DNA of 63,079 nt, the filler included, from Globobulimina sp. (taxonomy: Eukaryota): NCBI GenBank assembly GCA_003354225.1. It is 39 parts of 39 records of this genome, joined end to end, with 100 filler letters (N's around TTAATTAATTAA, not from the genome) between each part and the next. Parts side by side here need not be neighbours in the genome. Positions count along the whole stretch, not along the records: positions 22,694 to 24,213 come from PIVH01015379.1; 38 more parts are not named here. The stretch is one strand, 5' to 3'. The translations under genes and the position numbers were made by a program. The notes beneath the pieces were generated by a model. That model saw nothing but the letters and a program-made list of their open reading frames with translations, ran no database searches and was not told the DNA's origin. Below, in pieces: positions 6,493-59,841 of this stretch; within the stretch, counting starts at the first letter, position 1; each line of letters begins with the position of its first letter.

Positions 6493-6577
6493 TGTGAGGG
6501 GTAGGATTCGAACCTACGCGAACAAATAGTTCACCAAGACTTGAGCCCGGCGCCTTAGACCACTCGGCCACCCTCAC
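6493..6577 (-). tRNA. trnL-CAA: tRNA-Leu(CAA), intronless, no encoded CCA
   Basis: Reverse complement GTGAGGG-TGGCCGAGTGGTCTAAGGCG-CCGGG-CTCAAGT-CTTGG-long variable arm-GTAGGTTCGAATCCTAC-CCCTCAC-A; perfect 7-bp acceptor stem, A and B boxes. Confidence 0.95.
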
Positions 6578-12969: not shown

Positions 12970-14001
12970 ATCGCAGAGATGGCCGAGTTGCCGGAGGAAG
13001 TGCGCGAACGTACGGACGGGTTGGACGCGTTGGGCAATACGACTGCGGCGACGGGCAAAGGCTTTTGTATCGGCAGTGCGGTGTTGGCGACGTTGGCGCT
13101 GTTGGCGGCGTATAAGGCGGACGCGGACATCGAGGGTATCGACGTGTCGCAGGCCGAGGTGCTGATCGCCTGCATTATCGGCGCGTGCTTGCCGTACGTG
13201 TTCAGTGCGTTGACCATGTTGGCCGTGGGACGGGCCGCCAGTTTGATGATCGAAGAGGTCCGACGACAGTTTAAAGAGTATGGCTTATTGTCGGCGAACC
13301 CGAGCCGTCCGCCAGATTACGCGCAGTGTGTGGCGATCAGCACGAAAGCGGCCTTGATCGAGATGATCATTCCGGGCTTTTTGGCGATTTCCGCGCCGCT
13401 GTCGATCGGTTTTGTGTTAGGCAGAGAGGCGTTGGGCGGGATGTTGATCGGTTCGTTGGTCTCCGGCTTTATGCTCGCTATTTTCATGGCGAATGCGGGC
13501 GGCGCCTGGGACAATGCCAAGAAATGGGTCGAGGCCAACGGGTTGGGAGTGGACAAAGGAAAAGGAACCAAGTACCATCATGCGACCATTGTGGGCGATA
13601 CGATCGGCGATCCGTTCAAGGATACGTCCGGGCCGTCGTTGGATATCTTGATTAAGTTAATGACGATGATGAGCATTTTGTTCGCGCCCATTTATCCGAA
13701 GGAGGCGTTCGACGAAGACTGGTGGTGGGTCGGCTTGATCATCTTCTTGCTCTTCTGGTTGGTGGGGATCAGAATGTGGGTTTGGATGAGGCGCACCGGC
13801 TTCGGCAAGATCGATTATAAGACTTTGAATACGATCGAGGACGAGGACGAGAATGATATGGGCGGCGACGACGAGGAGTTGCATTTGATGCCCAGCAAAG
13901 GCACCGGCGAGGATGATAAGGAGGCGATGATTCAGGAGTTAAGGGAGCAGTTAAATGTTGCACAGGAAACGATTGCGAAATTAAAAAATCAAGAATCTTA
14001 A
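12970..14001 (+). CDS. Membrane-bound ion-translocating pyrophosphatase (V-PPase/HppA family), K+-dependent type, C-terminal part
   Basis: IAEMA..., LDALGNTTAATGKGF, NAGGAWDNAKK and GDTIGDPFKDTSGPS motifs; GNTTAA (Ala) is the K+-dependence signature. Confidence 0.97.
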   Translation: MAEMAELPEEVRERTDGLDALGNTTAATGKGFCIGSAVLATLALLAAYKADADIEGIDVSQAEVLIACIIGACLPYVFSALTMLAVGRAASLMIEEVRRQFKEYGLLSANPSRPPDYAQCVAISTKAALIEMIIPGFLAISAPLSIGFVLGREALGGMLIGSLVSGFMLAIFMANAGGAWDNAKKWVEANGLGVDKGKGTKYHHATIVGDTIGDPFKDTSGPSLDILIKLMTMMSILFAPIYPKEAFDEDWWWVGLIIFLLFWLVGIRMWVWMRRTGFGKIDYKTLNTIEDEDENDMGGDDEELHLMPSKGTGEDDKEAMIQELREQLNVAQETIAKLKNQES

Positions 14002-16211: not shown

Positions 16212-17630
16212 ATTAGCCGAAGTTACCGTAGATGGCAAAAAAGTGCGTGTCCCAAAAGGCGTCACCGTATTACAAGCTTGCGAGGCCGCTGGTGTTAACA
16301 TACCACGCTTTTGCTATCACGATCGGTTATCAATCGCTGGGAATTGCAGAATGTGTTTAGTAGAGGTTGAGAAAGCCAAAAAACCGGTGGCTTCTTGTGC
16401 TAATCCTATAATGCCTGGAATGGTCATAAAAACCGACACAAGTTACGTACTGACACAGTAATACATATACTCTCCAAATATACCGCAAATTCGCAACACA
16501 GACATGGTGAAATTTGCGCGTGAAGGCGTAGTGGAGTTTTTGTTGGCCAATCACCCGTTGGATTGTCCCATTTGTGACCAAGGCGGCGAGTGCGACTTAC
16601 AAGACATAGCGCTCACTTTTGGCAGTATGGAAGGGCGCTATTTGCACGAAGACAAACGTTGCGTGGAAGACAAAGACTTGGGGCCCTTCATCAAAACTGT
16701 CATGAACCGCTGCATTCACTGTACGCGTTGTATAAGGTTTTCCGACGAAATTGCCGGTGTCGATTCTCTAGGGACCACCGGACGGGGCAATGTGACTGAA
16801 GTGGGAACTTACATTGATACTTATTTTGACAGTGAGATATCCGGCAATGTGATTGATTTGTGTCCGGTGGGTGCCTTAACCAACAAAGCTTGCGCGTTTA
16901 AGGTGCGTCCCTGGGACTTGACCATTTTCGAAAGCATTGATATTATGGAATCTACGCAAGCGAGTATCGTATTGGACACTCGCTTCAATGAATTAATCCG
17001 CATAAAACCACGGCTGAATGAGGACATTAACGAGGAATGGATCAGTGACAAGACCCGCTTTTGTGTGGATGGCGTCAAACGACAGCGATTGGATATGCCG
17101 CTGGTGAAGAATAAGGAGAGCAACGTGTTGGAACCGGCGACGTGGCCCGATGCCTTGGCCTATGTCCACGAGAACATCGCAGCAGTGGATGGCGAGCAAA
17201 TGATGGCACTTTCTGGCGACTTGCAAGATATTGAAAGCATGCTCGCATTGAAAGACTTTATGCACAAATTAGGTTGTAATAATATCGAGTGTCGGATGGA
17301 TGGGACGCGAATGGAGTGCGACATGCGGAATAATTACTTATTCAATGCCAGCATCACAGGGATTGAGCAGTGCGACACGTTGTTGTTGATTGGGTGCAAT
17401 CCGCGCATGGAAGCACCACTCATTAATACTCGGATAAGGAAGGCGTATTTGAATGGATTGGATGTGTTTGTGATTGGCAATGCGGCCAAATTGAACTATG
17501 AGTTTGAGAGTTTGGGTGAGAATTTGTCGGCGTTGCAGGAGATTGTGGCGGGGACTTCGGCGTATTGCGAGGTTTTGGCCGAGGCGCAAGAACCGTGCGT
17601 CATAGTTGGTATGAATGCGTTGCAAGGCGA
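16212..17630 (+). CDS. NDUFS1: NADH:ubiquinone oxidoreductase 75-kDa Fe-S subunit (nuclear-encoded), partial; intron 16442-16501
   Basis: [64 protein letters not shown]; the 60-nt GT..AG intron restores [14 protein letters not shown]; similarity ends near 17630 at a GC-rich join. Confidence 0.97.
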
Positions 17631-18084
17631 CAAGTTCCAGGTCGGTGAAGCTGGCAGTTCCGTCGGAAGCATCACGATTCGGTGCGGGTCGGGGGGGCTC
17701 TTTTGATGCGAGCTGGCCGGCTCCGGCTCCTGNNNNNNNNNNNNNNNNNNNNNNNNNNNNNNNNNNNNNNNNNNNNTTAATTAATTAANNNNNNNNNNNN
17801 NNNNNNNNNNNNNNNNNNNNNNNNNNNNNNNNTATACGTAGGTCTATACAGGGGTCAAAAATAGATGAGAATAGGTTAGTATTTTAAATAGTGCCACGAG
17901 ACATTCCTAGTACTGAGACATTCAAAAAACATATTTTTAGCAATTTTAAATCGATTATTTTCGTTTTCATGGATTATTGGCATTTTCATGCTAGAATTAA
18001 GCATTTTGAAGTTTGGTCATATATATATAATGTACATGGAGAGCTATTAGTTTAAAAACTGGTTTATATGAAAATTGTGTCACA

Positions 18085-21391: not shown

Positions 21392-22408
21392 TTACTTAAA
21401 TCTGACGGCTATAACACTGATATTATCGGTAGATCCATCATCAATCGCTTGCTCACATAAATCATCCAACGAATGTAACAGAGACGATTGATAATTATAA
21501 TGGTACTTATAATTTGTTACTAATTCTTTTTCATTCCATTTCTCAATCAAACCATCACAAAACAGCAGCAAAGTGTCATTTTCATAACAAATAATTTTTG
21601 TACATTCAGCGTCAGAAATCATTTTTTGTTTATTCAGTGCCAATAATTCGTTGTTTTTCATCACATTGCACCCAAAACAACGCGATATGGCGCAAATGCC
21701 ATCAATTCGATTATTTATAATTTCACCATTTGCGTTTTTTATTCTTCTGCCCTCTGTTTCTGAATCACAGTGATGGTCAGTGGTTAAATTGGAATATTTC
21801 CACTGGTCATTAATTAGCATTGCCCGGGAATCGCCAGCCCAAAATACACGTACTTCAGTGCCTAAATCGTATAATAATTCGGAGTTTGACCTGGACGCTG
21901 TAGTGGACACTGTGGCTGATACGGTGGTCGATGCTGTGGTGGATATCGTTTTTGATACAGTATTTGTGGCGGGCATCACAGCTAAATTTGACATTTTTTT
22001 TATTTTTGATTTCTTGACTAATGCAAAAACAAAGGTATTGCCTGCATTTACGTTGTAATCTGATGCTGTGTCGCATTGAGCAGTGCCTTTGTTACGCCAC
22101 AAAGCATCCATTTTATTGATCGAATCGATAATTTCTGCGTCATTTTCAATGTCAGTTAATTCGTCTAATAAATGGATGAGATTTTTAGAAAAATATGACG
22201 CTGCGTCTGCTCCATTAAATCCATCGAAAATGCCAAATAATGAATATAACGGATGCTTTGGTAATGACACGCAAATTGTATTTCTGTCCTGCATTTCTCT
22301 GCGTTGTCCTATTGTGGCTCGTAAAGCATATTCGTATAAATGGTTTGTTTTGTGTGCTCTTTGTGAATTGGTAGAGTTAATTGAAGCTAATGATAAACAA
22401 GCACCCAT
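21392..22408 (-). CDS. Protein phosphatase 2C (PPM family), probably N-myristoylated
   Basis: GQRREMQD, FGIFDG, AGDSRA, LTTDH, AISRCFG, LFCDGL, GSTDNISV; ATG at 22408 gives MGACLS. Confidence 0.9.
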   Translation of the reverse strand: MGACLSLASINSTNSQRAHKTNHLYEYALRATIGQRREMQDRNTICVSLPKHPLYSLFGIFDGFNGADAASYFSKNLIHLLDELTDIENDAEIIDSINKMDALWRNKGTAQCDTASDYNVNAGNTFVFALVKKSKIKKMSNLAVMPATNTVSKTISTTASTTVSATVSTTASRSNSELLYDLGTEVRVFWAGDSRAMLINDQWKYSNLTTDHHCDSETEGRRIKNANGEIINNRIDGICAISRCFGCNVMKNNELLALNKQKMISDAECTKIICYENDTLLLFCDGLIEKWNEKELVTNYKYHYNYQSSLLHSLDDLCEQAIDDGSTDNISVIAVRFK

Positions 22409-22856
22409 AATGTCGGACACGATTCGATCTAAGTTGAGATGGAAGAGGAAAAAAGAAGTTTTTTTGTAGAAGAAATGTAATAGAGTTTTCCTATTTGACC
22501 TTGATTTTGCTCATGATCAACTTTTTTTAATCATTTGTGATTTGTTAGAGAAAAAGCTTAAGTAAATGTTCGTCTAATCCTTATTTATAATACNNNNNNN
22601 NNNNNNNNNNNNNNNNNNNNNNNNNNNNNNNNNNNNNTTAATTAATTAANNNNNNNNNNNNNNNNNNNNNNNNNNNNNNNNNNNNNNNNNNNNCCCCTAT
22701 TACTTTGAACACAATAAAAACATAGCAACGCAAGCTGTATAAATATATAAAAAACAAACTAACTAACTAAGTACGGTTTGAAGCAAGTATTCTTGGAGTT
22801 TGTAGAACAAAAAGATCTTACTCATCTTAGTGACTTAGTCCGCATAGTACGATACA

Positions 22857-24213
22857 ATGTTCAAAAGTTTATCAAGAATAATTTCATCAACAAACAGATC
22901 AGAACTGTTGCTGTCATCTAGTCGCCAATTTAGTTAATGATTTCATCCTGATTTATCCCGAAATAATTTGCAATAAAAAAAACAAAAAACAAAGGTCAAC
23001 AATCTCGAACAAATGTATTAATAATGGGCGCAGCCGGCAGAGATTTCCACAACGTATATATGTCTATCTTTTAGTACGTAAACATTTGGCACAATTTACA
23101 CAAATAAAATTTGAAGTTTAACATGAAATATCGCAACAACGAGGCATTTAATGTGGTCGCATTCACAGCCACCCAAATCCCAGGAATTGAGGGTCGTTTA
23201 TATCCACCAGAATTATGTGGCAACTTATATCCAAATGGCATACCAATTTGTGACGAGTCAGAATTAGAATCCTTAATCAACGCACATGCTGTGGACGAGG
23301 TTATATTTTCGTATTCCGACATAGATAACGACTATCTCATGAACAGAGCATCCAAAGTGATGTCGTATGGTTCGTCCTTTAAATTGTTAGGACCCTCAGA
23401 AACGCAGTTAATTTCCAGTAAACCCGTTATATCCGTACTTGCCGTGCGTACCGGATGTGGTAAATCGCAAACTGCGCGTTATATCGTCGAGTATTTCACG
23501 AATAAAGGTTTACGAGTTGTGGCTATTCGGCATCCGATGCCTTATGGAAATTTAATCAAACAAAAAGTGCAAAGATATGCCACTGTTCAAGACTTAATGT
23601 ACATTCTTTCATAATTATACGCACCGCAAACACCATATATTGATCATGCCATTGCATCACTGTGCCATTGATTATCCACAGCTCGATGTCATAATCAATT
23701 TATAGTGTTGCTGTTGTATACAAACTGTGACACCACATTTTCAGTGACCATGAGTGCACCATTGAGGAGAGGGAGGAATATGAGCCGTATGTTGTGCGCA
23801 ACGCCATCATTTATGCCGGCGTCGATTATGAGGCCATACTACGCGAAGCGGAGAAAGAGGCGGACGTCATACTATGGGATGGCGGTAACAATGATATGTC
23901 ATTTGTAAAATCAGACTGCGAGATTACAATTTTAGACCCACATCGCGTTGGACATGAAAAGAGGTACCATCCGGGACAGACAAACGTGTATACGGCAGAT
24001 ATATTGTTGATCAATAAAATAGCGACAGCGGACTATATTAATGTGGTGAAAGTGACTGAGAGTGTGTCGAAGATGAATCCGGACGCAGTTATCGTTGAGG
24101 CAGCCTCTCCGATCGTGATTGATACCGTCGACGAGCTATTGGTGAAAGGCAAACGCGTCTTGGTGGTGGAAGATGGTCCCACATTGACTCATGGCGGCAT
24201 GAAATATGGCGCC
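22857..24213 (+). CDS. COG2403-family P-loop enzyme (ArcE arginine synthetase / cDPG synthetase-like) with predicted mitochondrial presequence; exons 22857-22932, 22995-23053, 23117-23598, 23745->24213; 3' partial
   Basis: Spliced product MFKSLSRIISSTNRSELLLSSSRQFS-QQSRTNVLIMGAAGRDFHNFN...FTATQIPGIEGRLYP...AVRTGCGKSQT...IRHPMPYG...HECTIEEREEYEP...AGVDY...WDGGNND...VEDGPTLTHGGM; three GT-AG introns restore the conserved motifs. Confidence 0.9.
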
Positions 24214-24506: not shown

Positions 24507-25244
24507 TTAATTGGTTTGAGACAACAATGCAAGTTCAAATTGTATCTGTTGTGTTCCAATACCACAGTCACATAATGTATAACAACAAAATGCACCACGT
24601 TTATTCATATAATCAATATATTCTTCTCCAAATTGCTTTATCAATGCTCGTTCCTCATTTCTTATTCTTGTAATAACAAATATAACAATGCTCGTACCGC
24701 ATATCCAAGTAAACCATTGTCCAATAAAAAAATATCCAATCCAAAATATAAATATTGATGTATACATTGGATGTCTTGCTAATTGATATGGTCCTGTTGT
24801 CACTAACTCTGCATTTTCAACTGTTGATACTAACACTGTCCACATTCTACCTAAATTATGTAATGTCCAAATTAATAATATATCACCAATAAGCATTACT
24901 ATTATACCAAATATCATAATTACATATGTATATATTCTTGCTTTGTCATGATCAACATTTATTTCATTAAATATATCCCAATGACCATTATTCCAATCAC
25001 CAGAAAATGTTAAATATTGTGGCCATATTGCTGAAGGAATATTCGATACAATCGAAGCAAAAATTGATATTCTTATGCCCCATAAATTGGTGGATGTTTC
25101 CATTGTTTCAACCACTTTTTGTTTATTTTTTCCACGTGTTCTCTTAATATAAAAATACAACAATGTGAAGCCAAATATTAAGTTTTCAATCCATTCCAGA
25201 CAATAAAGCGTGATTACTATTTTGCTGTGGTCCAAAAAAGACAT
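24507..25244 (-). CDS. Isoprenylcysteine carboxyl methyltransferase (ICMT/PEMT)-family membrane protein
   Basis: LGRMWT, LVTTGPYQLARHPMYT, RIRNEERALIKQFGEEYIDY. Confidence 0.85.
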   Translation of the reverse strand: MSFLDHSKIVITLYCLEWIENLIFGFTLLYFYIKRTRGKNKQKVVETMETSTNLWGIRISIFASIVSNIPSAIWPQYLTFSGDWNNGHWDIFNEINVDHDKARIYTYVIMIFGIIVMLIGDILLIWTLHNLGRMWTVLVSTVENAELVTTGPYQLARHPMYTSIFIFWIGYFFIGQWFTWICGTSIVIFVITRIRNEERALIKQFGEEYIDYMNKRGAFCCYTLCDCGIGTQQIQFELALLSQTN

Positions 25245-25933
25245 AAATATATTTATGAAGAATTAAGAATTAAGTTTTTGATACTACAGCTTTTGGCAAA
25301 ACCTACCAAAGATGGATGCCAAAGATCTTTGGTACTTTGGTATTGTTTGGAGTTCTTTGGTATCGTTGGTGTTTTAACTTGTGTGTATTTATACTTTTAG
25401 GTAAAAGGAAATTTAAAGAAGAAATATAGGAATAAAATATAAATATAGAATTTTGATATCTAAATATATAGATTATGAACGGTAGATATCATAATCCTAT
25501 ATATTTAGATTATTGTTGTTTTCATAAACATGGTCACAAATATTGACTCAACTTTAAGAATTTGGGATTTGGAACTTTGTTTGCATGGATAAATGTTAGT
25601 CATCCTATCAACATTCAACCCACGCTCTTGCGTCATATTAACATAAAATGGCATCATTAGACTATGGCCAACTAAGTTTTTTTTGAGACCGTTACATTTC
25701 AAGTCTACTTATGTCTAAGAGGATTGCTTGCCAGCAGCGTGGATTAATAAATAGTCCTCACTCTATTGCCTCTACTGTCTCTCAATGTGGTTTATAATCC
25801 ATTTGCAAAATAAACCTACACATAGAAAATCGGNNNNNNNNNNNNNNNNNNNNNNNNNNNNNNNNNNNNNNNNNNNNTTAATTAATTAANNNNNNNNNNN
25901 NNNNNNNNNNNNNNNNNNNNNNNNNNNNNNNNN

Positions 25934-54984: not shown

Positions 54985-55183
54985 NNNNNNNNNNNNNNNN
55001 NNNNNNNNNNNNNNNNNNNNNNNNNNNNTTAATTAATTAANNNNNNNNNNNNNNNNNNNNNNNNNNNNNNNNNNNNNNNNNNNNCAGTGCTCTTTTGCTT
55101 GAATTGCTTGAGAGTATGAAATGTGATTGTACTCCACACGTACTGCTCACAGAAAAGTGAGAAAATCTCCACTTGAGTGAAAC

Positions 55184-56554
55184 ATGGAAAAGCAGCAAAA
55201 GCTGAATAGTACTATTCTTGTTGAAACAGATGCCACATTAACACCTCAAAAACTCATGATCAAAAACAGCGATAGGTGGATGATATTATGTTTGTCTTTT
55301 ATCAGTTCATTTGGAATTTATTATTGTTGTTATTTGCCATCAGTTTTAGAATCAGAACTATTAACACAGTACAAATGGACTCATGCGCAATATAATTCAT
55401 TCTTTTCCATATTTTATTTTTCTTCATTACCTGTTACAATAATCGCAGGTTATCTTTGTGATACAGTCGGAATATGTGAAACAACACTACTCTTTCTTTT
55501 CATTTCAATGATTGGACAATGGCTGATCACAATTGGCTGTCATTTGCCACCAAATACATATTTTGTATTGTTATCTGGCAGATTTATTTATGGCATTGGT
55601 TCCGAACCTTATCAAGTTGCTAACTCAGCATTAATTGCTAAATATTTTATGAATGCTGAGTCATTTTTATCAATGGGATTAAAACTTGCATTTGGAAGAT
55701 TAACAACAGCATTTACTTTCTATTATGGCTTAACATTATTCAATAAAATATTCAACCAATCAATCAAAACCGCAATGTTTTCCGGTGTCATTTCAATGTT
55801 AATTGCTGTTATTGCTGCTATTGTAATTTTGCTGATTGATAATAAAAATAAAACTAAAAATAAGAGTAATCTCGATAATAAAAATAAAAATAAGAGTATT
55901 ACAGATAACAATCATAACGCTATAAATGCGAAAAATTATGTTTTCTGGATCTTATTATTTATCACAGGCATTAATTACACGGTATCTCAAGGATGGTTAG
56001 GAATGAGTTCTGAATACGTCCAAAAGAAATACAATTATTCACATGATGCAGCAAATGAATTGATAACATTAATTACATTAATTCCTGCATTTTTGACTCC
56101 GACAGTCGGATTCTTTATTGATATAAAACCAATGCGGTGTCAAGCCCTTTTATTAAGTTCTTGCATGATGTTTATGGCGCATTTATCATTTAACTATGAT
56201 TATATTCAATATGGCGTGGTATCTGTTGCAGTCTTAGCCATTGGTTTTTCCATTTATCCGGCTGTTTGTTGGGCAGCGGTACCTTTGCTTGTCGATCAGA
56301 AACATGTTGGTAAAGCAATGGGATTTATGACCGCATTTTTATGTTTATTGTTGCTCGGATGTCCAATTATTATGGGGAAATTACAAGATATTGCGGTTGC
56401 ACAGGGTATAAATCAGCAAAGTAAGGTCAAATATAAATCATCTGAAATCTCATTTTTGTGTTTGAGTGCTATTTCGTTAGTATTGACTGTCTGTTTGTGG
56501 TATGCTGATCAGAAAAGGGGTAACAAATTGCAACAAATGAAGAGCAAATTATAA
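55184..56554 (+). CDS. MFS transporter, MFSD1-like, complete and intronless
   Basis: RW.IL...SF..FG.YY, QYN.F.S.., GYLCD..G, GRFIYGIGSE, P.LV.....G.A.G; about 12 TM. Confidence 0.88.
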   Translation: MEKQQKLNSTILVETDATLTPQKLMIKNSDRWMILCLSFISSFGIYYCCYLPSVLESELLTQYKWTHAQYNSFFSIFYFSSLPVTIIAGYLCDTVGICETTLLFLFISMIGQWLITIGCHLPPNTYFVLLSGRFIYGIGSEPYQVANSALIAKYFMNAESFLSMGLKLAFGRLTTAFTFYYGLTLFNKIFNQSIKTAMFSGVISMLIAVIAAIVILLIDNKNKTKNKSNLDNKNKNKSITDNNHNAINAKNYVFWILLFITGINYTVSQGWLGMSSEYVQKKYNYSHDAANELITLITLIPAFLTPTVGFFIDIKPMRCQALLLSSCMMFMAHLSFNYDYIQYGVVSVAVLAIGFSIYPAVCWAAVPLLVDQKHVGKAMGFMTAFLCLLLLGCPIIMGKLQDIAVAQGINQQSKVKYKSSEISFLCLSAISLVLTVCLWYADQKRGNKLQQMKSKL

Positions 56555-58322: not shown

Positions 58323-59841
58323 AACACAGTGTTTGTGTTGCAAGTTATTGTGAGAATTTTGTATGCGGTTCACCCAAAAAGAAGAAATCCAAACAAGTGC
58401 GAGCACGCATATTATCAGATCCAAACAACGCCAACAATGAAACCAACTGCATCGTCAACGATGAAACCTACAATGAATCCAATGATATTATAGATGAAAT
58501 ACGTTATTTGCAACTAAGTCAAGCAAATAATAATAATAATAATAACATACAAAACACAACGTACAAACATGTACCGATTGAAACCGCAAATTTTAGCAAC
58601 TATCCAAATATGTACAGTCGAATTCGTGATATATTAAAAGATGAATCATTATCTATTTATCAAAATATTCCGGAATTCAATACAGCTGCATTTTGTGAGT
58701 ACTATAAATGTTTACAAACAGACAGACCATATTATGTAGAAGCGAACGGAATATGTATTATACAAAACTTTGATATTAAATTGAAAAAATTATCTAATTC
58801 GTTTCAAATAACGTTTGTCGATCGAGATGAAAATAACAACATTGTCCCGTTTTGTACATGCGATATGTATAAGAATCACAGATTATGTATGGATACTTTA
58901 ATAGTTGAAATTGGAATGAATCATATCAAATATAATACCATTCCATTATTCAAATCATTCAGTGAATCAAACCAGGTAAATAAAGATGGCAGCACAATTG
59001 ATGATATATTTTGTATCAAATCCAATTTAAACGGGTTTCGAAGTGAAGCTTTTTATGTATGGGATGATAGTACACCACAAATTGTATATAGAAATAATGA
59101 TGGCTGTATCACATGTTCTATTTGCAAACAACGTAATACATGCACACATCGTAAAAAATTAATGTCTGCATTGGCTATTACGTACCCAGAATATAAGGAT
59201 AGCAGAGCTCAAGTTATCATATCATCCAATGACCGTCAGTTTAAAATAAATAAGTCTCATTCTAATGTCAAAGTACCTCCTCCCAAAATACATAGAACAG
59301 ATACAGATGAAATATTATTAGCTTACGATCAGTATCAATATGATGCGTCTCTATTAATTAATGCACATTTTATTCCAGAAAGTAACCATTGTTTGAAATG
59401 CAAACATTTATTCCATACAATTGATGCAGATACAGATGATACAGTTAAACATTTTGATACCATACATTTTGAGTCAGTTTTGTTTGCATTGGAAATGCCA
59501 TACGAGTGTACTGTTGATTATTATAAATGTCATCAATGTGATCATATCAACAAATTTGATGGATGTAATCTGCATATATTAAATTATGACGGATTAAGTT
59601 TGTATACTCATTCTTTATTGAACAACAGAACAAATAATCTGCACACCTGCAGAGCTTCTTCATGGGAAAGTTGGTGTAAAGATCAAGCTCGTGTATATAA
59701 TGAGAATGGAGCCAAATATCAATTTCCGTATGATTCAGAATTCATTGCTGTGTGGAATTCATTTACTGTTTTCATTCAAGATTGGGAGTATGAATTTATT
59801 TGTCCCTGGTGTGATCGAGGTGGTGTGAACAAAGGAGAGTG
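58323..59841 (+). mobile_element. Zisupton/KDZ-type transposase N-terminal region (SWIM-like fingers plus CxC4-like cysteine cluster), partial
   Basis: FCTCDMYKNHRLC, CSIC.....CTH, CLKC...YKCHQC...FDG...HILNY....LYTHSLLN...F..VWNSF...FICPWC resembles HMGXB3/Zisupton; catalytic domain lies beyond the contig end. Confidence 0.6.

Follow-up and report, generated by a model that had tools for sequence, protein, structure and literature searches.

A spliced foraminiferal gene of the arginine synthetase (ArcE) family with a predicted mitochondrial presequence

The DNA considered here, referred to as the window, is a stretch of 63,079 nucleotides from the foraminifer Globobulimina sp. (GenBank assembly GCA_003354225.1). 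It is composed of 39 contigs of 1519–1522 bases, arranged by length with N/TTAATTAATTAA/N linkers between them, and with a guanine-plus-cytosine (GC) content between 0.29 and 0.49. One of the contigs, PIVH01015379.1, carries a gene for a protein of the arginine synthetase family, i.e., the family of the archaeal enzyme ArcE, in which the coding sequence is interrupted by three introns and preceded by a leader that is predicted to direct the protein to mitochondria. Because the contigs are joined by linkers, the gene has no true physical neighbors in the window, and open reading frames (ORFs) that cross a linker are artefacts. The contig and the parts of the gene are listed below, with positions counted along the window.

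22694–24213: gene-bearing contig, 1520 bases, GC 0.40, with N/TTAATTAATTAA linkers at both ends
22857–22932, plus strand: exon 1, 25 codons and one base from the ATG, encoding the leader to ..SSSRQF/S
22933–22994, plus strand: intron 1, 62 nucleotides, GT..AG, phase 1, GC 0.24
22995–23053, plus strand: exon 2, 59 nucleotides, ..QQSRTNVLIMGAAGRDFHN; collinearity with prokaryotic ArcE proteins starts here
23054–23116, plus strand: intron 2, 63 nucleotides, GT..AG, phase 0, GC 0.25
23117–23598, plus strand: exon 3, 482 nucleotides, encoding the N-terminal domain and the P-loop region
23447–23467, plus strand: Walker A motif (P-loop) RTGCGKS, residues 156–162 of the spliced protein, invariant in the family alignments
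23599–23744, plus strand: intron 3, 146 nucleotides, GT..AG, phase 2, GC 0.37
23745–24213, plus strand: exon 4, 469 nucleotides, open to the contig end, with the motifs CTIEEREEYEP, WDGGNND and EDGPTLTHGGM

Joined together, the four exons form an open frame of 1086 nucleotides that encodes 362 residues, and the introns (GC 0.24–0.37) are more AT-rich than the exons (GC 0.32–0.48). Intron 1 separates the leader from the portion that is collinear with bacterial proteins. An in-frame TAG is found four codons upstream of the ATG at 22857, which means that the frame could start further upstream only if there were another exon. At the other end the gene is broken off at 24213 by the end of the contig, such that approximately 110 C-terminal residues fall outside the window. 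A contig from the public sequencing run X4 (see below) extends past 24212 in frame and reads G-M-V-A-A-E-R-N-Y, as does the orthologue of Bolivina argentea at this point, i.e., the gene continues beyond the contig end. Searches of the other 38 contigs with the Bolivina and Nonionella proteins (tblastn) did not reveal a second piece of the gene, but only chance matches with E > 1. The original prediction, which had been made from the sequence alone, placed all exon and intron borders correctly, and every motif that it quoted is found in the spliced translation.

The gene model was compared to contigs from four public sequencing runs. One of these, X1, is DNA, while X4, X6 and X7 are from three different studies; X6 and X7 are presumed to be RNA, while the kind of X4 is not on record. 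The evidence for splicing is strong but consists of assembled contigs rather than labeled RNA reads. A single contig of X7, 1016 nucleotides long, is composed of 22891–22932, 22995–23053, 23117–23598 and 23745–24176, with all three introns skipped at exactly the predicted borders. The same three joints, 22932>22995, 23053>23117 and 23598>23745, are all present in X4, where coverage starts at 22861, and in X6 joints 1 and 2 are exact while joint 3 contains one substituted base. The DNA run X1 yielded an unbroken contig spanning 22796–23660 that retains introns 1 and 2 and enters intron 3. Within intron 3, the segment 23612–23713 has zero contig depth in X4, X6 and X7. The transcriptome-derived orthologues discussed below are collinear with the window protein across junctions 2 and 3, with no insertions or deletions.

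The X7 and X6 contigs diverge by a few percent from the window sequence, and the distribution of these changes is informative. Among the differences listed, 26 of 32 (X7) and 29 of 35 (X6) are located at third codon positions, and the changed codons of the spliced frame are mostly synonymous (25 of 31 in X7 and 28 of 34 in X6), which indicates that the reading frame is under purifying selection. These data bear on the possibility that the sequence is a bacterial contaminant of the assembly or a dead fragment of a transferred gene, an explanation that would be in line with the highly fragmented assembly and with the spread in GC content of its contigs. However, three spliceosomal introns are removed in contigs from three studies, the frame is open, most substitutions are synonymous and orthologues are found in four foraminiferal transcriptomes. 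Contamination or decay is refuted by the introns, their splicing and the selection on the frame, unless the joined contigs are assembly artefacts, and its probability is considered to be negligible. It is almost certain that the gene is a real, spliced foraminiferal gene of the ArcE family. The earlier claims that this is a eukaryotic nuclear gene rather than a bacterial contaminant, and that its transcript is joined at these three junctions, are both upheld, the latter by contigs of runs whose kind is guessed or not on record.

Upstream of the gene, the runs X1, X4 and X6 all contain contigs that match the segment 22708–22762 but diverge from the window on both sides of it, which suggests a repeated element rather than a part of the transcript. 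There is no contig depth in X4, X6 or X7 at 22796–22846.

The only characterized member of the family, ArcE, is the TK2200 protein of Thermococcus kodakarensis, which catalyzes the reaction arginine + ADP + Pi ↔ citrulline + NH3 + ATP (PMC11032458); the reaction as given in the original prediction agrees with this description. A search of a large protein collection using exon 3 returned, among the matches listed, five eukaryote-type proteins at 75–77% identity followed by prokaryotic proteins at 62–69%. The latter constitute a continuous bacterial series with a few archaeal members and carry labels such as “predicted GTPase”, “GTPase” and “cyclic 2,3-diphosphoglycerate synthase”. Exact look-up in EukProt identified the eukaryote-type relatives P0001, P0004 and P0005 as proteins of Bolivina argentea, Nonionella stella and Elphidium margaritaceum, respectively, the last of these corresponding to MMETSP1385 (PMC6783311), and P0405, a member of the P0002 cluster, as a protein of Ammonia sp. 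All four named species are benthic foraminifera, which fits the description of the host as a sediment protist tolerant of hypoxia.

With the Bolivina protein, the window protein in its spliced form shares 77% identity over its whole length, including the leader; the values for Nonionella and Elphidium are 73% and 75%, respectively. Identity to the bacterial protein P0008 is 66%, and to the archaeal homologues that were compared it is 43–48%, for example 48% over 331 residues for Hyperthermus butylicus (P0292) and 47% over 327 residues for Pyrodictium occultum (P0328). Both are genera that are named as holders of arcE in the Discussion of the ArcE paper (PMC11032458). In an alignment with 83 prokaryotic rows, all 83 of the columns that are conserved to at least 97% keep the conserved residue in the window protein, a comparison to which the C-terminal ~110 residues do not contribute. 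A profile search of 1.84 billion representative sequences returned 4443 members of the family at E ≤ 0.001. No Pfam or NCBIfam model was found for the family; the window protein gave only a marginal match to the cobW/HypB P-loop domain, on exon 4, and the full-length proteins P0001 and P0292 gave no NCBIfam match. The Thermococcus sequence was not found in cluster look-ups of 20 family representatives or in homology searches seeded with archaeal members, which returned Thermoproteota, Hyperthermus, Pyrodictium, Ignisphaera and Desulfurococcaceae names. The link to the only assayed enzyme is therefore indirect.

The labels attached to the relatives of the protein by NCBI and UniRef, i.e., “cyclic 2,3-diphosphoglycerate synthase”, suggest a different identity, that of a true cyclic 2,3-diphosphoglycerate (cDPG) synthetase, and this explanation can be evaluated by comparison to solved structures. 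Against the Protein Data Bank (PDB), exon 3 gave no match at E ≤ 1, while exon 4 matched 9sxb (E = 1e-4, ~110 residues). A profile built from 15 family members matched 9sxb (E = 2e-8) and 8oru/8ork (E about 9e-6), in all cases partially, over ~110–150 residues, and no structure of an ArcE was found in the PDB by sequence match. The fold was compared using the AlphaFold model of the Bolivina orthologue P0001, which at 77% identity served as a stand-in for the window protein (mean predicted local distance difference test score, pLDDT, 86.4; predicted template modeling score, pTM, 0.85). The best structural match of this model is indeed the cDPG synthetase of Methanothermus fervidus (8oru/8ork; E = 1.9e-18), but at 15% identity and a template modeling (TM) score of 0.47. 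In sequence, the similarity is weak and partial, and the family is widespread in mesophilic bacteria. To our knowledge, cDPG is known only from hyperthermophilic methanogens. It is very improbable that the window protein is a true cDPG synthetase. The next structural match is LpxK of Aquifex aeolicus (4ehy and sister entries, E = 1.8e-8), and 4EHY is the LpxK entry that the authors of the ArcE study superimposed on their TK2200p model (PMC11032458, section 8).

Judged from its sequence, the window protein is a member of the ArcE family and only a distant relative of the true cDPG synthetases. The membership in COG2403/ArcE, which had been assigned in the original prediction, is supported by the full-length homology to proteins from archaeal arcE-holding genera and by the retention of the near-invariant residues, and the distant relationship to the cDPG synthetases agrees with the failure of the similarity to the M. 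fervidus enzyme to extend over the whole length.

Phylogenetic analyses place the gene together with those of other foraminifera. In the first tree, which contained 85 rows, the five eukaryote-type proteins group with the window protein in one clade with full support (SH-like approximate likelihood ratio test, SH-aLRT, 100). This clade has a long stem (0.7) and is located inside a mostly bacterial part of the tree, where its sister group is not resolved. A second tree, rooted on four Thermoproteota sequences and including family representatives as well as the Ammonia and Creolimax proteins, recovered a foraminiferal clade of seven rows (SH-aLRT 100) inside the bacterial crown. The nearest relative of the window gene is the Bolivina argentea orthologue. 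That the foraminiferal proteins constitute one clade surrounded by bacterial sequences suggests that the gene was acquired from a bacterium once and long ago. The donor lineage cannot be named, because neither tree resolves a sister group (both have open forks at this point). The simplest reading of these sequence relationships would be one bacterial transfer into the ancestor of these foraminifera, followed by gain of introns.

Three further proteins of the family were noted. P0147, from the ichthyosporean Creolimax fragrantissima (EukProt), is an ArcE-family protein with 42% identity to the Bolivina protein, several altered motifs and a short basic N-terminal addition of its own. It falls outside the foraminiferal clade in the second tree, which suggests a separate acquisition; it is found on a long branch, and its placement is weak for this reason. 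P0003, a protein of 429 residues in the foraminiferal clade, is encoded on a 5840-base contig from the European Nucleotide Archive (ENA). Its sequence starts at the Met with which exon 3 of the window gene begins, and is uninterrupted from there on. This arrangement would fit a genomic contig from another foraminifer that has intron 2 but not intron 3. P0226 (806 residues) is an ArcE-family protein split by an intein that contains a LAGLIDADG endonuclease domain.

Additional information on the function of the family was obtained from the genomic context of its prokaryotic members. The set consisted of the 80 prokaryotic loci closest to the Bolivina protein (54–63% identity), in which all ORFs that comprised 120 residues or more and were located no further than 6 kb from the gene were clustered; some loci had less than 6 kb of flanking sequence. 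The two most common families of neighbors are carbamate kinase (representative with 372.6 bits to TIGR00746, cut-off 358) and ornithine carbamoyltransferase (OTC; 418.8 bits to TIGR00658, cut-off 281). Carbamate kinase is found in 22 of the 80 loci and OTC in 13, either of the two in 26 and both in nine. They are nearly always encoded on the same strand, mostly directly downstream, at gaps of 3–130 bases. Of the 50 prokaryotic rows that fall in the same half of the 85-row tree as the foraminiferal clade, 21 show a linkage to carbamate kinase or OTC. Seven loci (L015, L020, L030, L052, L054, L072 and L077) lack these two genes but have an arginyl-tRNA synthetase directly upstream, encoded on the same strand, i.e., another linkage related to arginine. 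Six of these loci are represented in the 85-row tree, all from Chloroflexota, and in L072 the gap is larger (580 bases). In addition, P0127, a protein of 766 residues from a Logan assembly, is composed of a carbamate kinase domain (3–309; NF009007, 313.8 bits, cut-off 266) fused to an ArcE domain (328–760). As far as can be seen from its sequence, this natural fusion links the activities of carbamate kinase and ArcE.

The same data are relevant to the question of whether the reaction of TK2200 may be transferred to the window protein, or whether the protein, as a P-loop enzyme of this family, uses a different guanidino or ureido compound or a different phosphoryl acceptor. A difference in substrate would be compatible with the fact that only one family member has been assayed so far, with the 43–48% identity to the archaeal homologues compared and with the absence of a Pfam or NCBIfam model. 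Furthermore, carbamate kinase and OTC are both absent within 6 kb in 54 of the 80 nearest loci, and only ten of the 32 loci that have 6 kb or more of sequence on each side contain carbamate kinase or OTC. Yet every one of the near-invariant columns is kept, the most common neighbors are carbamate kinase and OTC, the arginyl-tRNA synthetase is recurrent, and a carbamate kinase–ArcE fusion exists. Another substrate is considered improbable, and arginine synthetase activity is the likely function predicted from these comparisons.

The N-terminal part of the protein differs from that of its prokaryotic relatives. In the window, Bolivina, Nonionella and Ammonia proteins, 30–34 residues precede the sequence VLIMGAAG, while among the listed proteins that bear the MGAAG motif, 105 of 111 have it within eight residues of the first Met (median offset 8). 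The window leader of 32 residues contains five Lys/Arg, one acidic residue (E16) and 12 Ser/Thr. When the Bolivina and Nonionella leaders are included, the numbers are 5–6 Lys/Arg, 0–1 Asp/Glu and 8–12 Ser/Thr, compared to 14% Asp/Glu in the mature part of the protein, and the Ammonia leader is, by eye, similar in composition. The leaders are otherwise divergent, but in all four species they end in R-(Q/H/R)-F-(S/T), i.e., ..RQFS, ..RQFS, ..RHFT and ..RRFS. Such an R-x-F-(S/T) end fits the R-3 class of mitochondrial processing sites, where an Arg at position −2 or −3 and an aromatic residue are followed by Ser, Thr or Ala. The leader had been described beforehand as Ser/Arg-rich, nearly free of acidic residues and ending in RQF/S; this description is accurate, with E16 as the single acidic residue, and can be extended in that both the type of leader and its end are kept in three other species.

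Intron 1 splits the Ser codon that follows ..RQF, leaving one of its bases in exon 1, and exon 2 starts two to three codons before the point at which bacterial proteins start. Exon 1 therefore corresponds essentially to the added leader, as would be expected of a transferred gene that gained a targeting peptide in the form of a new first exon. In the model of the Bolivina orthologue, residues 1–25 have a pLDDT below 50 and are unstructured, and the fold opens with a strand at residues 29–34 (NVLIMG). A start at the second or next Met was rejected, since it would delete this first strand.

The leader could also have a role unrelated to mitochondria, whether as a tail without ordered structure, as a segment involved in regulation or as a targeting signal for a different compartment, with the enzyme supporting cytosolic splitting of arginine as in Giardia and most metamonads. 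This alternative draws on the acidic residue in the window leader, on the three of the six other clade proteins that have no leader in the databases and on the finding that the enzymes of the arginine deiminase pathway in metamonads were cytosolic when tested (PMC5052871). On the other hand, the length class, composition and R-x-F-S/T end of the addition are conserved in four species despite the divergence of its remaining sequence, and the leaderless entries begin at an internal Met, as truncated transcripts or prokaryote-style gene calls would. A signal peptide was dropped as a candidate because the hydrophobic run is too short, as was a peroxisomal targeting signal of type 2 (PTS2) because no such pattern is seen in the leader, in both cases judged by eye. 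An enzyme that is active outside of mitochondria is regarded as unlikely. Instead, the leader is probably a mitochondrial presequence, and the location of the enzyme predicted from it is mitochondrial.

The pathway in which such an enzyme might participate is known from Thermococcus kodakarensis, where ArcE, ArcB and ArcC constitute an “arginine synthetase pathway” (PMC11032458; PMC13260591). The presence of a carbamate kinase in the absence of a named arginine deiminase is the pattern that led to the discovery of ArcE in this organism (PMC11032458, section 6). A search of the window for the partner enzymes, using 22 bacterial carbamate kinase and 14 bacterial OTC sequences (tblastn, E ≤ 0.01), found neither. 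Both are reported from other foraminifera, for which no arginine deiminase is named, as in the pattern that led to ArcE. Reticulomyxa filosa has an OTC as well as a carbamate kinase, the latter standing apart from the other eukaryotic carbamate kinases (PMC5052871), and the main text of that survey of the arginine deiminase pathway mentions Reticulomyxa in the sections on these two enzymes only. Expression of OTC and arcC was reported for a saccamminid foraminifer found in anoxic sediment, and carbamoyl-phosphate energy metabolism was described as new to foraminifera (PMC13561418); in the passages of that paper on this metabolism, arginine degradation appears only as the general arginine deaminase pathway, and no foraminiferal enzyme that converts arginine to citrulline is named.

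When these data are combined, the best explanation would be that a nuclear foraminiferal gene encodes an orthologue of the prokaryotic arginine synthetase. The enzyme would catalyze the conversion of arginine, ADP and phosphate to citrulline, NH3 and ATP as does TK2200. Its N-terminal addition would be a mitochondrial presequence that is cut at R-x-F|S/T, such that the enzyme acts in the matrix, where citrulline would be passed on to OTC and carbamate kinase. The yield per arginine would be two ATP, formed by substrate-level phosphorylation without O2, together with ornithine, CO2 and two NH3. This explanation as a whole, i.e., a foraminiferal ArcE orthologue with a presequence that splits arginine in the matrix, is held with moderate confidence. 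The original interpretation, in which an O2-independent, ATP-conserving breakdown of arginine in the mitochondrion had been proposed, is partly supported. The conjunction of a real gene, arginine synthetase activity and a mitochondrial location with a catabolic role is assigned somewhat less than an even chance. More tentative is the proposal of a complete ArcE–OTC–carbamate kinase pathway in foraminiferal mitochondria, derived from a bacterial arcE gene, perhaps from a whole arcE-arcC operon, with the presequence acquired through a new first exon.

Alternatively, the same enzyme may operate mainly in the opposite direction, forming arginine from citrulline, NH3 and ATP in ammonium-rich pore water. 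Such a synthetic role could serve nitrogen storage or a phosphoarginine pool, replacing or acting beside argininosuccinate synthetase and lyase. The mitochondrial formation of citrulline by OTC in animals would suit this alternative. The reaction can proceed in both directions, with TK2200 enabling growth on citrulline and ammonium (PMC11032458, section 14), and an arginine kinase is highly expressed in a foraminifer (PMC13561418). However, the equilibrium favors citrulline and ATP, with K about 10 at 80 °C (PMC11032458), carbamate kinase, a catabolic marker, is linked to the relatives more often than OTC (22 vs 13 of the 80 loci), and carbamate kinase is expressed in foraminifera (PMC13561418). 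A mainly synthetic function is considered rather unlikely.

A number of observations weigh against the splitting of arginine by a mitochondrial ArcE as set out above, in addition to the loci that are devoid of carbamate kinase and OTC. The window protein is devoid of its final ~110 residues. The ATG at 22857 is not covered by the run contigs, whose furthest upstream reach is 22861, and none of X4, X6 and X7 is recorded as RNA. The Elphidium protein as well as P0002 and P0003 start without a leader, which is probably due to truncation or to prokaryote-style gene calling. The assignment to ArcE runs via archaeal homologues that are named at the genus level in the ArcE paper, and the reaction is reversible (PMC11032458), such that it may run in either direction in vivo. 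The predicted location of the saccamminid OTC and ArcC is not stated in the relevant passages of PMC13561418.

The enzyme family itself, and the occurrence of arcE homologues in the sense that they are “present in a few eukaryotes”, have already been published (PMC11032458). New relative to the literature searched are the foraminiferal clade, the introns, the leader and the fit to carbamoyl-phosphate metabolism, with the qualification that supplementary figures S10 and S11 of PMC11032458 may list some of these species. No description of an ArcE in foraminifera was found in this literature, and none of the titles found for “arginine synthetase” since 2024 concerned protists. The breakdown of arginine is not treated in the main text of the principal transcriptome papers on Nonionella and Bolivina (PMC8153729, PMC11736642), the main text of the latter containing only two mentions of “twin arginine”, and PMC12605782 reports only an unresolved metabolite signal for arginine, citrulline and ornithine.

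Benthic foraminifera belong to the small number of eukaryotes with mitochondria that flourish in the absence of O2, which raises the question of how they produce ATP there. The window gene offers a concrete candidate for the arginine-to-citrulline step that is conserved across foraminifera. If foraminifera do run the complete mitochondrial pathway proposed above, the gene would name the missing enzyme behind the carbamoyl-phosphate metabolism of anoxia-tolerant foraminifera, and the pathway would represent the first organellar, and also the first eukaryotic, fermentation of arginine that yields two ATP. Should the enzyme function as in Thermococcus, possibly inside the mitochondrion, an activity described only in 2024 would be extended to eukaryotes and to organelles. 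The gene also illustrates the domestication of a transferred bacterial gene, where exon 1 carries almost exactly the added leader.

Other contigs of the window contain a few recognizable genes. On a contig with a GC content of 0.45, the plus strand at 12970–13998 encodes a proton-pumping pyrophosphatase, of which the C-terminal part is present (H_PPase, E = 2.8e-102); this type of enzyme is discussed in relation to foraminiferal metabolism under anoxia (PMC13561418). At 16462–17703 (plus strand) there is an uninterrupted ORF of 414 residues for a subunit of the complex I 75-kDa/NuoG type (Molybdopterin, Fer4_Nqo3 and NADH-G_4Fe-4S_3 domains). It is located on the contig with the highest GC content in the window (0.49) and may be either a nuclear NDUFS1 gene or from a bacterium in the sample. 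The minus strand encodes a PP2C phosphatase with a Thr/Ser-rich insert (21395–22510), a methyltransferase of the ICMT/PEMT family (24510–25262) and one tRNA (6493–6577). An MFS transporter (55181–56551) and the CxC4 domain of KDZ-type transposases (58325–59839) are found on the plus strand.

In addition to the Creolimax protein described above, four known systems may be compared with the window gene. The first is the ArcE of Thermococcus kodakarensis. The window protein belongs to the same family by way of archaeal homologues (47–48% identity), shares its P-loop and conserved motifs and, through the Bolivina model, has the LpxK structure 4ehy as a structural neighbor, and close prokaryotic relatives are encoded beside arcC and arcB. 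In contrast to the archaeal enzyme, it is found in a eukaryote that is not a hyperthermophile, its gene has three spliceosomal introns and it carries a presequence-like addition of 26–30 residues.

The second system comprises the bacterial arcE-arcC(-arcB) operons of Ignavibacteriota, Calditrichota, Acidobacteriota, Fidelibacterota and others (loci within L002–L070), which contain the closest non-eukaryotic sequences. Their proteins are 54–63% identical to the Bolivina orthologue and collinear with the window protein from about residue 30. Unlike the window gene, the bacterial genes have neither leader nor introns and are organized in operons.

With the M. fervidus cDPG synthetase (8oru, 8ork; also 9sxb), whose name is applied to the family in databases, the window protein shares a distantly related fold and a P-loop, while the low identity (15%) and TM score (0.47), the partial sequence match and the different substrate set the two apart. 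Finally, the arginine deiminase pathway of anaerobic protists such as Giardia, Trichomonas and Hexamita (PMC5052871) has the same role as that proposed here, i.e., formation of ATP without O2 via OTC and carbamate kinase. In the foraminiferal pathway, however, the hydrolytic arginine deiminase would be replaced by an unrelated P-loop enzyme as the first component, such that a second ATP is conserved, and while the deiminase pathway is cytosolic in most metamonads tested (PMC5052871), a mitochondrial location is proposed for that of foraminifera.

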